Origin: an uncultured Verrucomicrobiota bacterium
GTDB taxonomy: Bacteria; Verrucomicrobiota; Verrucomicrobiia; Limisphaerales; CAZKNW01
Assembly: GCA_964554035.1 (NCBI GenBank)
Contig: CAZKNW010000001.1
Location: forward strand, 1-42,437
Length of the DNA stretch: 42,437 nucleotides
Direction of reading: 5' to 3'
Shown: positions 2,896 to 22,966 of the stretch, piece by piece
Position numbering within the stretch: position 1 is the stretch's first letter
Layout: each line of letters starts with the position of its first letter
Notes under the pieces: model-generated
What the model was told of the DNA's origin: nothing
The model's database searches: none
What the model saw: only the letters and a program-made list of their open reading frames with translations
Position numbers and translations under genes: made by a program

Positions 2896-3163
2896 TTCTC
2901 TTACTGAGCCACGGAGGAACACGGGGAGTTGAAATGCATGCATTTCAATGAAGGTCCTATCTCCCTGTCTCACCGAAGCCCATGCGAGGGCGGAAGAATC
3001 AAAGGGTAGGGCCCGTCGCTCCGCGCGGGCCGTTGTTGCGGACGGGGAGTCAGGATGTCCCTTTGCGATTGGATGCCATGCCCGGGCGCTCACGGAGTGA
3101 TCGCCCTACCTTGAGAGGTAAGATTCCAATCGGTGGCTTTTCTGAATCTGCGGGGAACCAATC
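2896..3163 (+). repeat. Structured intergenic repeat, copy A (H1 module lacking its right arm, complete R2 module, tail)
   Basis: Shares long near-identical blocks with 3209-3401, 7728-8049 and 22600-22966: gagccacggaggaacacggggagTTGAAATGCATGCATTTCAA, then gaagcccatgcga...aaagggtagggcccgtcgctccgcgcgggcc...cgggcgctcacggagtgatcgccctacc, then the tail gattccaatc...ggggaaccaatcc. Confidence 0.9.
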
Positions 3164-3208
3164 CCATTCGATCTCACGCCAAGACGCCGAGACGCAGAGG
3201 GGAGAGAA

Positions 3209-3401
3209 GTTTCTCTCACGGAGCCACGGAGGAACACGGGTGTTGAAATGCATGCATTTCAATAAATGGCCTCTCTCCGTGAATCACCGTGGCTCCGTGA
3301 GAGATATTCTTCCCTGTCTCACCGAAGCCCATGCGAAAGGGGAAGCCCCAAAGGGTAGGGCCCGTCGCTCCGCGCGGGCCGTTGTTGCGGACGGGGAGTC
3401 A
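3209..3401 (+). repeat. Structured intergenic repeat, copy B (complete H1 module, left half of R2 only)
   Basis: Directly follows copy A. It contains a perfect 18-bp inverted repeat, 3212-3229 tctctcacggagccacgg and 3287-3304 ccgtggctccgtgagaga. This encloses the 20-bp palindrome at 3243-3262. The R2 left arm (GTAG at 3355-3358) is present and the right arm is absent. Confidence 0.9.
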
Positions 3402-6027: not shown

Positions 6028-7629
6028 ATGAAACTGCGTATTGTTACCATTCTGACCGTCTTGCTGTTCTGGTCGGCCTCGCTCTGGGCCAAGGATCAGC
6101 GTCCGAACATCCTCTTCATCTTCACCGACGACCATGCACCTCATGCCATTGGTGCCTATGACGGCTGGTTGAAATCAGTCAACCCGACCCCGAACATCGA
6201 CAAGCTGGCCGGGCAGGGAATGCTTTTCCGGAAGAGCTTCTGTTCCAACTCCATCTGTGGTCCCAGCCGTGCCGTCATCCAGACCGGCAAGCATAGCCAC
6301 AAGAACGGGTTCATGAACAACGGCAACAGCTTTGACTGGAACCAGCAGACCTTTCCCAAGCTCCTCCAGAAGGCCGGATACCAGACCGCCATCTACGGAA
6401 AGAGCCACCTCAAGGGACAGCCGCAGGGTTATGATGACTGGGCCGTCCTCCCCGGGCAGGGGCTCTACTACAACCCCGACATGATCTTCGCGGACGGAAA
6501 GAAGAAGATCGATGGCTACTGTACCGACGTGGTGACTGATCTGGCGGTGGATTACCTGAAGAACAAGCGACAGGCCGACAAGCCCTTCATGGTGATGGTC
6601 CAGCACAAGGCACCTCACCGCAACTGGATGCCCGCTCTGCGTCACCTGCACCTCTATGACGACATCGAGATCCCTGAGCCTGCGACCCTCTTCGACAAGT
6701 GGGAGGACAATGCGCCGCCTGCACGCCATCAGGAACTGGAGATCGATCGTCACATGGATCTCAACTACGACCTTTTCGTCGATCTGACCCCGGAGTTCAA
6801 CCAGCCTGCTTCCCAGAAGCGCCAGGATCGTTCTGCCTGGAACAACATGAAGCGCATGACGCCTGAGCAGCTCAAGGCCTGGCGTGATGCCTACGGTCCC
6901 AAGGATGAGGCCTTCCACAAGGCCAACCTTTCCGGCAAGGACCTCGTGCGTTGGAAGTATCAGCGCTATGCCAAGAACTACCTTCGCTGTGTCAAGGGCG
7001 TGGACGAGAGCGTGGGTCGTCTTCGTGACACGCTCAAGGAGCTGGGCTTGGATGAGAACACCATCGTGATCTACAGCTCCGACCAAGGCTTCTACATCGG
7101 AGACCATGGCTGGTATGACAAGCGCTGGATGTATGAGGAATCCCTGATGATGCCCTTCATCGCCTACTGGCCCGGTGTGACCAAGGCGGGTTCCAAGGAC
7201 AACCACTTGATCCAGAACCTGGATTATGCCGAGACCTTCCTCGACATCGCTGGGGCTCCTATTCCTGGCGACATGCAGGGACGCTCGCTGGTGCCGCTGT
7301 TGAAGGGCAAGAATCCCAAGGACTGGCGCAAGAGCATCTACTATCACTACTACGAGTATCCCAGCGTTCACATGGTGCCCCGTCACTACGGCATCCGGAC
7401 CGAGCGTTACAAGCTGATGCACTTCTATCAGTTTGGAAACGAGTGGGAACTCTACGATCTGAAGAACGATCCGGACGAGCTGACCAACATCTATGGGCAG
7501 CCCAAGCACGCCAAGCTGACCCAACGTCTCAAGAACCAGCTCAAGAAGCTGCAGAAGGATTACGAGGACGACAGCGACATCTCCGAGAAGCCGGAGAGCT
7601 GGCAGAAGGAAGTCCGTCCGCTTGAGTAG
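6028..7629 (+). CDS. Secreted Cys-type sulfatase (paralog of 3438..4964)
   Basis: ORF trimmed to the ATG at 6028 (MKLRIVTILTVLLFWSASLWA signal peptide). It has FTDDH and the motif SICGPSRAVIQTG, and ends at a TAG stop. Confidence 0.9.
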   Translation: MKLRIVTILTVLLFWSASLWAKDQRPNILFIFTDDHAPHAIGAYDGWLKSVNPTPNIDKLAGQGMLFRKSFCSNSICGPSRAVIQTGKHSHKNGFMNNGNSFDWNQQTFPKLLQKAGYQTAIYGKSHLKGQPQGYDDWAVLPGQGLYYNPDMIFADGKKKIDGYCTDVVTDLAVDYLKNKRQADKPFMVMVQHKAPHRNWMPALRHLHLYDDIEIPEPATLFDKWEDNAPPARHQELEIDRHMDLNYDLFVDLTPEFNQPASQKRQDRSAWNNMKRMTPEQLKAWRDAYGPKDEAFHKANLSGKDLVRWKYQRYAKNYLRCVKGVDESVGRLRDTLKELGLDENTIVIYSSDQGFYIGDHGWYDKRWMYEESLMMPFIAYWPGVTKAGSKDNHLIQNLDYAETFLDIAGAPIPGDMQGRSLVPLLKGKNPKDWRKSIYYHYYEYPSVHMVPRHYGIRTERYKLMHFYQFGNEWELYDLKNDPDELTNIYGQPKHAKLTQRLKNQLKKLQKDYEDDSDISEKPESWQKEVRPLE

Positions 7630-7661
7630 GCAGGATCCTAGATCCCAGTGATTTCAGAAAA

Positions 7662-7692
7662 GGCCGCTCCCGAAAGGGCGCGGCCTTTTTAT
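7662..7692 (+). terminator. Rho-independent terminator after the sulfatase 6028..7629
   Basis: GGCCGCTCCC-GAAA-GGGCGCGGCC forms a 10-bp stem with one mismatch and a GAAA tetraloop. It is followed directly by TTTTTATT, 33 nt after the stop codon. Confidence 0.75.
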
Positions 7693-7727
7693 TGCCCCCA
7701 CGCGGAGGCGCAGTGGCGCGGAGGAAT

Positions 7728-8049
7728 AAGACAATACCGTTTCTCTCACGGAGCCACGGAGGAACACGGGGAGTTGAAATGCATGCATTTCGACAAATGT
7801 CCTCTCTCCGTGAATCCCCGTGCCTCAGTGAGAGATATTCCTTCTCCTTTAGGATTCGGAAAATAGCTCATGCGAAAATGGAAGCCCCAAAGGGTAGGGC
7901 CCGTCGCTCCGCGCGGGCTTTTGTTGCGGACGGGGATTCAGGATGTTCCTTTGCGATTGGATGCCAAGCTCGGGCGCTCACGGAGTGATCGCCCTACCTT
8001 TGTGAGGCATGCCTCGATCCTCGGATTCCAATCTGCGGGGAACCAATCC
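7728..8049 (+). repeat. Structured intergenic repeat, copy C (H1, R2, short tail)
   Basis: H1 carries the palindrome variant TTGAAATGCATGCATTTCGA at 7774-7793. R2 is bounded by GTAG 7894-7897 and CTAC 7994-7997. The tail lacks the 17-nt segment ggtggcttttctgaatc seen in copies A and D. Confidence 0.9.
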
Positions 8050-8764: not shown

Positions 8765-10057
8765 TCACGGACGATCGATGGATGCCTCCCATTCATCGAG
8801 AAGGGTGGTGAGCCGGGCAACCCTGTCTGGATGATGAAAGCAGAGGTTGGTGGACTCCGAGACGTCCGAGCTGATGTGAAACAGGTGGGTCGTGCCGTTC
8901 TCCATCTGCAGGAGCTTCCAGTCGCCCTGCCGGACAGCCCTTCCCGGGTTGATGACCTTTCGCTTTGGGCCTGATTTCCTGCGCCAGAACATCGTGCGCC
9001 TTGCAGCGAGATCCGGGGATTCCAATAGCTTGAAGACGTCCCCTCCATCCCCTGCAGCGACGTCCTGTCCGATCAGGTTCCGAAACGTGGCGCTCCAGTC
9101 CATGGTGTTGACCGGTGCCGAGGAAATACTGCCTTCCTTGAACCTGCCGGGCCAACGGGCGATGCAGGGGACGCGGATGCCGCCTTCCCAGAGGGTGGCC
9201 TTGTCCCCGCCCATGGGACGGTTGTCGGAATAGGTGTGGCCTCCGTTGTCGGAACAGAAGACGACCAGGGTGTTTCCCCGAAGGTCGAGGTCATCGATGA
9301 GTTTAAGGACCCTGCCGATTCCTGCGTCCATGGACTCCACCATCGCTCGATAGGTCTCGCGATCTCCGATCTGCCAGGACTTGTGCTTGGGGCGGATGTC
9401 CTTCCCCTGGTCGCCGGGACCCTGCCAGGGGAAGTGGGGAGCGGCGTGGGACAGGTAGAGGAAGAAGGGATTCTTCTGATTGTTGCGGATGAACCCCAGT
9501 GCATCCTCCGTGATCAGGTCGGTGCTGTAACCCCTTCGCTTCACAGGTTCCGTGTTTAGCCAGAGGTCATGGACTCCAATGCGGTCCATGTGCTGGAAGT
9601 AATGATGGTTGCCGCCAAGCAGCCCGAAAAAGTGATTGAATCCCTGGTGGTTGGGCTGACGTTCCGTGTCGTATCCGAGGTGCCACTTGCCCGAAAGTCC
9701 GGTGGTGTAACCGGCGGCCTGGAAACTGTGGGCAAGGGTGCGCCCTTCTGGATCGATCCCGCGTCCCATTTCCTGGTAGTAGAGCGCATTGTCCATCCCG
9801 ATCCGTTGCGGATAGCGTCCGGTCAGGAAACCGGCGCGGGTGGGTGAACAGGTCGGGCCGGTGGCGTAGTAATCGGTGAAGCGTATGCCTTCCTTCGCAA
9901 GTTGATCAAGGTGGGGTGTCCTGATGTCAGGGCTTCCGTAGCACCCCAGGTCTCCGTAGCCGAGGTCATCGGCCATGATGAAGACCACGTTGGGTGGGGA
10001 AGCGGCCTGGAGACCGAGGCAGGTGATAATGAGCAGGGCAGTGAGACGAAATGCCAT
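8765..10057 (-). CDS. Secreted Cys-type arylsulfatase
   Basis: Signal peptide MAFRLTALLIITCLGLQA, then ADDLGYGDLGCYG and the motif TCSPTRAGFLTG. 430 aa. Confidence 0.9.
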   Translation of the reverse strand: MAFRLTALLIITCLGLQAASPPNVVFIMADDLGYGDLGCYGSPDIRTPHLDQLAKEGIRFTDYYATGPTCSPTRAGFLTGRYPQRIGMDNALYYQEMGRGIDPEGRTLAHSFQAAGYTTGLSGKWHLGYDTERQPNHQGFNHFFGLLGGNHHYFQHMDRIGVHDLWLNTEPVKRRGYSTDLITEDALGFIRNNQKNPFFLYLSHAAPHFPWQGPGDQGKDIRPKHKSWQIGDRETYRAMVESMDAGIGRVLKLIDDLDLRGNTLVVFCSDNGGHTYSDNRPMGGDKATLWEGGIRVPCIARWPGRFKEGSISSAPVNTMDWSATFRNLIGQDVAAGDGGDVFKLLESPDLAARRTMFWRRKSGPKRKVINPGRAVRQGDWKLLQMENGTTHLFHISSDVSESTNLCFHHPDRVARLTTLLDEWEASIDRP

Positions 10058-22599: not shown

Positions 22600-22966
22600 A
22601 AGACAATGCCGTTTCTCTCGCTGAGCCACGGAGGAACACGGGGAGTTGAAATGCATGCATTTCAACAAATGTCCTTTCTCCGTGAATCACCGTGCCTCTG
22701 TGAGAGATATTCTTCCTCTTTCAGAATCTGGAAGATAGCTCATGACGAGACGCCGCTTGTCCTGCCGAAGCCCATGCGAAGGGGGAAGACCCAAAGGTAG
22801 GGCCCGTCGCTCCGCGCGGGCCTTTGCTGCGAACGGGGATTCAGACGCCTTCATGCGATTGGATACCAGGCCCGGGCGCTCACGGAGTGATCGCCCTACC
22901 TTTGTGAGGCATGCCTCGATCCTCGGATTCCAATCTGTGGCTTTTCTGAATCCTCGGGAAATCAAT
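22600..22966 (+). repeat. Structured intergenic repeat, copy D (H1, junction carrying both linker variants, R2, long tail)
   Basis: Palindrome at 22646-22665. R2 is bounded by GTAG 22797-22800 and CTAC 22896-22899. The linker carries both the agctcatg junction of copy C and the ccgaagcccatgcgaa junction of copies A and B. Confidence 0.9.

Follow-up and report, generated by a model that had tools for sequence, protein, structure and literature searches.

H1, a heptad-armed hairpin repeat with a conserved palindromic tip in a Verrucomicrobiota genome

The window analyzed here is a 42,437-nucleotide stretch of DNA from an uncultured Verrucomicrobiota bacterium. At 3209-3307 it holds two inverted repeats, one enclosed by the other, and related copies recur elsewhere in the window. 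A reading made from the sequence alone described the locus as an 18-bp perfect stem around a perfect 20-bp palindrome, a hairpin within a hairpin, and suggested that the palindrome is recognized by sequence, for example by a dimeric protein. The locus raises the question of what keeps such a palindrome: its use as a duplex DNA site, a role in RNA, passive duplication, or recognition as the tip of a folded structure. The element, termed H1, was followed through the assembly that contains the window as contig C1 (855 contigs, 4.72 Mb, 58% G+C, 82.6% complete) and through other genomes.

Anatomy and predicted fold of H1

In copy B, nucleotides 3212-3229 (tctctcacggagccacgg) are the exact reverse complement of 3287-3304, which bears out the 18-bp perfect outer stem in both coordinates and complementarity. 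A repeat search extends these arms to 28 nt at 86% complementarity, and the self-complementary 20-mer TTGAAATGCATGCATTTCAA lies between them at 3243-3262. Folding as RNA and as DNA, the check proposed along with the original description, predicts very stable structures for 3205-3310. The RNA fold has an energy of -57 kcal/mol (z = -9.7) and the DNA fold -33.7 kcal/mol (z = -9.2), and 0 of 200 shuffles are as good in either case. The predicted structure is a single coaxial hairpin composed of the outer arms, small internal loops, a bulge on the 3' side and an apical stem. The 20-mer forms this apical stem, which is 8-10 bp long, ends in a CAUG tetraloop and is flanked on its 3' side by an 11-nt bulge. 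Both palindromes are therefore real, but there is no separate inner hairpin: the structure is one continuous hairpin and the 20-mer is its tip. Covariance model R1 matches copy B with 97.9 bits (E = 6.7e-19). The features of the window are as follows.

2896..2975, + strand: H1 copy A; 5' arm, apex and bulge kept, 3' arm lost, runs into linker; R1 score 55.9 bits
3209..3307, + strand: H1 copy B, full hairpin with 5' arm, apical palindrome, 11-nt bulge and 3' arm
3212..3239, + strand: copy B 5' arm; terminus TCTCTCAC, then phased heptads CACGGAG, CACGGAG and CACGGGT
3243..3262, no strand: copy B apical palindrome; near-invariant 14-mer at 3246-3259, predicted tetraloop CATG at 3251-3254
3263..3273, + strand: copy B asymmetric bulge TAAATGGCCTC, 11 nt; unpaired in the fold, gives the element its polarity
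3277..3304, + strand: copy B 3' arm; three CNCNGTG heptads, then terminus GTGAGAGA
7659..7695, + strand: canonical intrinsic terminator, GGCCGC...GCGGCC then TTTTT, between the sulfatase stop codon at 7629 and copy C
7743..7834, + strand: H1 copy C; apex with one substitution (TTTCGA), 3 uncompensated arm mismatches
22615..22706, + strand: H1 copy D; exact apex, 4 arm mismatches, one of them a G-T wobble

The 20-mer is exact at 2929, 3243 and 22646 and has one mismatch at 7774, as first reported for copies A, B, D and C; these 4 occurrences compare with 0 expected, since none of 100 dinucleotide-preserving shuffles gave any match. Direct reading also agrees with the reported uncompensated mismatches in the arms of C (3 positions) and D (4 positions). 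At 2949-2975 of copy A, ...CTATCTCC is joined directly to CTGTCTCACCGAAGCCC, the linker 3' of the intact hairpin in copy B, as though about 35 nt had been deleted between short TCC repeats. Six copies (window A-D and two on contig C287) are parts of a larger composite unit with a REP doublet, R2. Copies A, B and D are identical because they belong to one young composite subfamily and not because of selection. The R2 module GGTAGGGCGATCACTCCGTGAGCGCCCGAGC is found in the window at 3064-3112, 7952-8000 and 22854-22902 and in more than 60 places genome-wide, and the 9-mer CTCCGTGAG is common to R2 and the H1 arm terminus.

Copies, conservation and distribution

In the whole assembly, the 20-mer occurs 7 times exactly and 17 times when up to three mismatches are allowed, and at least 23 elements combine core and arms. 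A covariance model made from 12 of the copies returns this set plus two divergent matches, one with another loop (C57:9512-9578) and one of a divergent CACAGAG type (C749). Hairpins located by their arms alone have the apex core in 16 of 18 cases, so the association of core and arms is not an artefact of a core-based search. H1 is about 95-115 bp long, non-coding and without an ORF. Copies occur in both orientations, with the polarity set by the asymmetric bulge (8-12 nt), and most are solitary and unattached to R2.

Several other features were seen near or among these copies. A 180-codon ORF with fairly high GC3 (0.65) at C17:6938-7480 spans the H1 copy at C17:7363-7456. In a related family, the arm heptads are of the CACAGAG type (e.g. 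CACAGAGGGCACAGAGAGACACAGAG) and the interiors differ from those of H1 (C749:1135-1246, C14:18154, C226:579, C350:4627, C387:4250, C52:13395, C536:1571, C586:552, C614:729 and C847:622). A small hairpin module, CCCGCRGTGGCGGGACAGG, of which there are 35 copies, lies between the first and second arm word (for example C17:10270-10290, C292:4750-4770 and C434:137-157). It is found in either arm, always pointing inward, in both the CACGGAG and the CGCAGAT word families, and resembles either a side-branch common to the two or a nested insertion whose target is fixed.

Conservation was measured as identity per column over 21 full H1 copies. The tip AAATGCATGCATTT has 90-100% identity in each column, the next pair outward (G/C) 86%, and the outermost TT/AA of the 20-mer 57-86%. 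In the arms, the termini CTCTCAC/GTGAGAG and the heptad skeleton CAC.G.G / C.C.GTG reach 88-100% (16-17 arms), and heptad positions 4 and 6 and the spacers 35-65%. The 3' bulge, at 38-70%, is poorly kept between subfamilies. The claim that the inner palindrome is more strictly conserved than the outer stem is thus only half true: it holds for the tip, but the arm skeleton is conserved equally well. Similarly, once many copies are aligned, the central 14-16 nt are better kept than their flanks but the full 20-mer is not. The conserved unit is 14-16 nt rather than the 20-mer, and the outer pairs vary in a compensated manner.

These outer pairs of the 20-mer vary on both sides together (TGGAAA/TTTCCA, CTGAAA/TTTCAG, TGAAAA/TTTTCA and GAGGAA/TTCCTC). 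Changes in the core fall mainly in the predicted tetraloop (CACG three times, CCTG once) or yield G-U pairs. All 21 full copies fold as the same long hairpin with an apical tetraloop. In the 12-copy alignment, 94.7% of cells pair, compared with 30-53% for slid partners. The covariation score lies above all 500 shuffles, with double changes in 3 of 8 apical-stem pairs and in one arm pair; the H1 copies are paralogues, so the shuffle control overstates significance and the slid controls are safer. Alignment of many copies supports a stronger contiguous constraint on the tip than on its surroundings. Part of the apparent conservation of the tip could reflect concerted evolution or hairpin-templated self-correction instead of selection. 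An invariant skeleton and an invariant tip with saturated, co-varying positions between them are characteristic of an element for which both pairing and certain bases are required. Under-representation of the palindrome's cores elsewhere in the genome, raised as a possibility in the sequence-only reading, was not found: the observed/expected ratios of ATGCAT (0.83) and GCATGC (0.98) are unremarkable among palindromes. Together with CATG (0.96), these ratios led to rejection of restriction-site avoidance.

The palindromic tip is confined to this genus. A pattern of the core with its adjacent heptad has no match in a collection of 185,579 species genomes. It occurs in 16 metagenome contigs, each 99-100% identical to the assembly and thus from the same population. 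These contigs differ from the assembly's H1 copies by one arm SNP only, and none of the 16 has a presence/absence polymorphism of H1. The SNP lies in contig L021 relative to C351:1116-1209 and restores a G-C pair in the metagenome variant; the same comparison has a 16-nt indel (C351, 575-634) about 500 nt from the SNP. Two H1 copies are present in the sister species (G001; 94% complete, 40 contigs). One has the apex CAGATGCATGCATCTG, with the central decamer ATGCATGCAT unchanged and both partners of three flanking pairs different (CAG/CTG). The other is at a contig end (G001:C12:7270-7327) that stops at the center of the apex palindrome, and many contig ends of the assembly are alike, so the hairpins probably break short-read assemblies and the copy numbers are lower bounds. 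Searches of 199 further genomes of the order and 400 of the phylum gave nothing beyond chance singletons. The presence of H1 in the sister species means that the family predates the species split and that its copy number then rose about tenfold in the present lineage, with 2 copies in the sister species and at least 23 here.

Comparison with mobile elements and the heptad-arm class

H1 lacks features expected of a MITE or a REP element. It has the terminal inverted repeats of a MITE, but no target-site duplication: the best direct repeat averages 1.9 nt compared with 2.15 ± 0.29 with shuffled partners. A search for a parent insertion sequence with the same ends gave only solo arms and no long element in this 82.6%-complete assembly, where multi-copy insertion sequences are usually unassembled. 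Correia elements of Neisseria and ERIC elements of enterobacteria are comparable to H1, being about 100-130 bp long, with terminal inverted repeats that form one hairpin, and intergenic, often transcribed and lineage-expanded. H1 differs from MITEs, Correia and ERIC elements in its lack of a target-site duplication and in its arms, which consist of internally repetitive heptads common to many phyla. A search of Rfam 15 gave only sub-threshold chance matches to microRNA hairpin models.

REP, REPIN and BIME elements, which are moved by RAYT proteins, resemble H1 as short extragenic palindromes in many copies without target-site duplications. They share its bias toward gene 3' ends and its mosaics, six H1 composites adjoining the R2 doublet. 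Unlike them, H1 has no GTAG head, its termini being TCTCTCAC / GTGAGAGA, and it is three times longer. No RAYT gene is flanked by H1. The only Y1/RAYT-like gene found (C524:2091-2429, minus strand, PF01797, E = 5e-26) is enclosed, within C524:1775-2740, by a direct repeat of about 215 nt, both copies of which contain GTAG-headed hairpins of a third kind (GTAGCCGG...) unlike H1 and R2. In view of these other repeats around the sole Y1 transposase gene, a link of H1 to RAYT was rejected.

Comparison with the sister species gave no alignable empty site for H1; downstream of the orthologous yggS and sulfatase genes, the two genomes are no longer syntenic. The species share a tRNA gene at 99% identity (C115:700-810 and G001:C37:65716-65846), but the DNA downstream of it is unrelated. 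It holds a REP doublet here and, in the sister species, a copy of H1 together with an additional gene, which indicates rapid repeat turnover at that place.

The H1 arm consists of three tandem units of the word CTCCGTG with 1-3 nt spacers. Arms paired on opposite strands form 18 pairs with interiors of 10-60 nt, many copies being present and mostly intergenic; solo arms and arms with other interiors also occur in this genome. The cyanobacterial STRR heptamer repeats are comparable inverted pairs of tandem heptamer arrays. The closest arm type is found in Geobacter metallireducens, where "class 2 global regulator binding sites" comprise 21 opposite-strand pairs at variable distance, each site having three tandem TCTCCGTS[Y] repeats, in many copies mostly between genes (2009, PMC2700814, Additional file 8). 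Aklujkar et al. guessed that IHF/HU binds these sites (PMC2700814). H1 has the same arm word (CTCCGTG plus 1-3 nt) and adds an invariant tip and an asymmetric bulge; a conserved palindromic center is not described for the Geobacter sites. In Xanthomonas, GGGAATC arrays consist of tandem 7-nt words in convergent opposite-strand pairs able to form stem-loops (Rehm et al. 2015, PMC4692102). Like H1, they are dispersed, mostly intergenic and different between close relatives (PMC4692102). Unlike H1, they have another word, longer arrays of variable length and a proposed G-quadruplex, and they lack a fixed three-unit arm, conserved termini and a conserved tip (PMC4692102). A literature search by sequence found no paper in the collection searched that prints a double heptad.

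The arms were sought more widely with the pattern CTCACGGAG-N-CACNGNG-N2-4-CACGGAG, whose 21 fixed bases mean that less than one chance match is expected. At least 118 stretches match in distant phyla, including Planctomycetota, Spirochaetota (complete chromosomes included), Bacteroidota, Proteobacteria (Neisseriaceae, Gammaproteobacteria), Lentisphaerae, Verrucomicrobiota and others. Most are ORF-less hairpins with short unrelated loops. This strict three-heptad pattern matches 0 of 200 genomes of the order, which is not evidence that the class is absent, since a relaxed two-heptad pattern detects it in at least one of them (G003, 32 matches compared with 8 in the control).

Among the matches listed, the PF13366 (PDDEXK_3) genes of the cross-phylum loci are hemmed in by CACGGAG-type hairpins in 5 of 5 cases. 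H1 resembles PF13366 and PF05635 cassettes in its kind of word arms and, in other phyla, in the CACGGAG word itself. It differs from them in having no ORF, and the cassettes of this genome use other words. This genome has 4-5 genes each of PF13366 and PF05635 (23S rRNA intervening-sequence protein), flanked by inverted arrays of words that differ per gene (for example GATTAAG, GGAGT, CATGAAG or CGCAGAT), and CACGGAG flanks none of them (C118:6721-7026 and 9017-9325, C140:5295-5600, C736:381-665, C26:8645-8989, C195:5751-6074 and C200:1409-2137). CGCAGAT is also the word in the "tail" of the composite repeat of the window (e.g. 8020-8049). In the cross-phylum PF13366 loci, comparison of the cassette interiors with the H1 tip gave no sequence link. 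An origin of the tip as a remnant of a cassette gene start was rejected; the start AAATGCATGAG is present in 1 of 5 PDDEXK_3 genes (L100) and absent from the other four.

Gene context and readings of the conserved tip

H1 is biased toward convergent gene ends. Crude gene calls resolve 16 distinct gaps with H1, of which 11 are convergent and one is divergent, compared with a genome-wide share of convergent gaps of 18% by count (p about 1e-5) and 23% by length (p about 1e-4). In several copies (C7:8935, C418:722 and C86:565), H1 fills the whole gap, 3-30 nt past both stop codons, and these hairpins must be transcribed at least partly.

The explanation that best fits these data, with a probability of roughly 0.55, is that H1 is a self-propagating, non-coding hairpin repeat whose tip is recognized in its folded form; both the self-propagation and the folded-form recognition are what we infer from the pattern of sequences. 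H1 would belong to a class of heptad-array hairpins, with three phased CACNGNG / CNCNGTG units closed by its characteristic termini. When single-stranded or extruded, it would form one long hairpin with the 20-mer as an A/T-rich apical stem-loop. An A/T-rich, perfectly palindromic center favors nucleation of a hairpin or cruciform, and in H1 this center may serve as both the nucleation point and the recognition tip. The element appears to have multiplied within the genus, and its copies may survive mainly where they are harmless, between convergent gene ends. It would require pairing together with particular bases, namely the heptad skeleton and AAATGCATGCATTT, and the most likely reason is that a structure- and sequence-specific factor handles the folded element during copying or processing. 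The combination of skeleton, tip and co-varying positions with lineage expansion and harmless locations fits a self-propagating hairpin repeat. Evidence of movement would be expected and did not appear: no empty site aligns, target-site duplications are absent, and the 16 metagenome contigs all agree in presence of H1. It also counts against this reading that neither the Y1/RAYT gene nor the PF13366 and PF05635 genes of this genome, an assembly in 855 contigs and 82.6% complete, have H1-type flanks.

A doubtful alternative is that H1 acts as RNA, its predicted long transcript hairpin serving as a two-way 3'-end structure for convergent genes. Such a structure might be a terminator-like block, an exonuclease barrier or a substrate of RNase III like the stems of 23S rRNA intervening sequences. 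The enrichment in convergent gaps, the copies that fill a gap after both stop codons, the very stable RNA fold with its use of G-U pairs, and the PF05635 (23S_rRNA_IVP) genes flanked here by arrays of other short words are all consistent with this role. Termination itself is less easily reconciled with the context, since copy C and C17:13978 are downstream of canonical terminators, C17:10313 follows a weaker candidate, and the sulfatase orthologue of the sister species ends with an ordinary terminator and no H1. H1 itself lacks the features of an intrinsic terminator: no U-tract follows the stem, which is flanked by T before and A after and is followed by A-rich, then C/T-rich sequence on both strands, and a terminator scan makes no call. 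The folding energy has no strand preference, the orientation relative to tandem genes is not consistent, and terminator function leaves the invariant 14-mer of the tip unexplained. A strand-specific RNA was rejected, both strands folding equally well (12 compared with 8).

It is unlikely that the palindrome serves as duplex DNA to which a dimeric protein binds sequence-specifically, whether a regulator or an IHF/HU-like nucleoid protein, in which case the heptad arms might be extra binding units. The contiguous, near-invariant, dyad-symmetric 14-16-mer has the form of such a site, its A/T-rich center lies within G+C-rich arms, and the heptads are phased 8-10 nt apart, about one helical turn. 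IHF/HU binding has also been proposed for the same type of arm (PMC2700814). An operator would be expected as dyad sites in the promoter regions of a set of genes, but the exact palindrome never occurs outside the H1 hairpins, no copy lies in an obvious promoter, and convergent gaps predominate over the single divergent one. Further, the outer pairs change on both sides at once, including the CAG/CTG replacement in the sister species, which is demanded by base pairing and not by a protein reading fixed half-sites, and symmetry-breaking changes of the four central bases are tolerated in 4 copies. The difference between 2 copies and at least 23 in sister species is also unlike a regulon. The original suggestion of sequence-specific recognition therefore survives in the constraint on the tip beyond its surroundings, but a dimeric protein on duplex DNA is not supported, since the copies lie mostly at convergent gene ends and not at promoters and dyad-breaking changes in the loop are tolerated. 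Recognition of the folded tip fits this pattern better and is more probable than a duplex operator.

A functionless tip is quite improbable. The family would then be a passively duplicated by-product, for example carried along with neighboring REP doublets, as the six composite copies with R2 might suggest. The tip would look conserved as unique sequence kept palindromic by hairpin-templated repair, while the repetitive arms scramble fast by slippage and exchange with other arms. Palindromes do self-correct by template switching, and the solo arms and arms with other interiors are possible exchange donors. The adjacent bulge and spacers, unique sequence like the tip, have an identity of only 38-70%, which argues that time and mutation sufficed to change the tip. 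In addition, most copies are solitary without R2, and the central decamer was kept across the species split while its flanking pairs changed.

Recognition of the folded tip of a self-propagating repeat is consequently the preferred reading, and it allows a more specific proposal that we regard as speculative and improbable. CACGGAG-armed hairpins may be non-coding members of an undescribed type of mobile element that is moved via folded DNA, as a cruciform or hairpin, by a structure-specific nuclease, such as the PDDEXK_3 proteins whose genes they enclose in other phyla, and the ATGCATGCAT tip may be a genus-specific recognition or cleavage site.

Heptad-armed hairpins fill the intergenic DNA of many phyla and have so far been listed but never explained. 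The arm-type repeat is already on record, though barely described, and what is new is the genus-specific invariant tip. H1 provides a handle on this class because it combines a single genus, an expansion from 2 to 23-plus copies between sister species, and an invariant 14-mer at its tip. If the tip is not a recognition site, H1 would be an ordinary lineage-specific repeat, relevant for annotation and for why assemblies break at such places. If the tip is the recognition site of a hairpin-handling enzyme, H1 would offer a route to the mechanism of the whole class.
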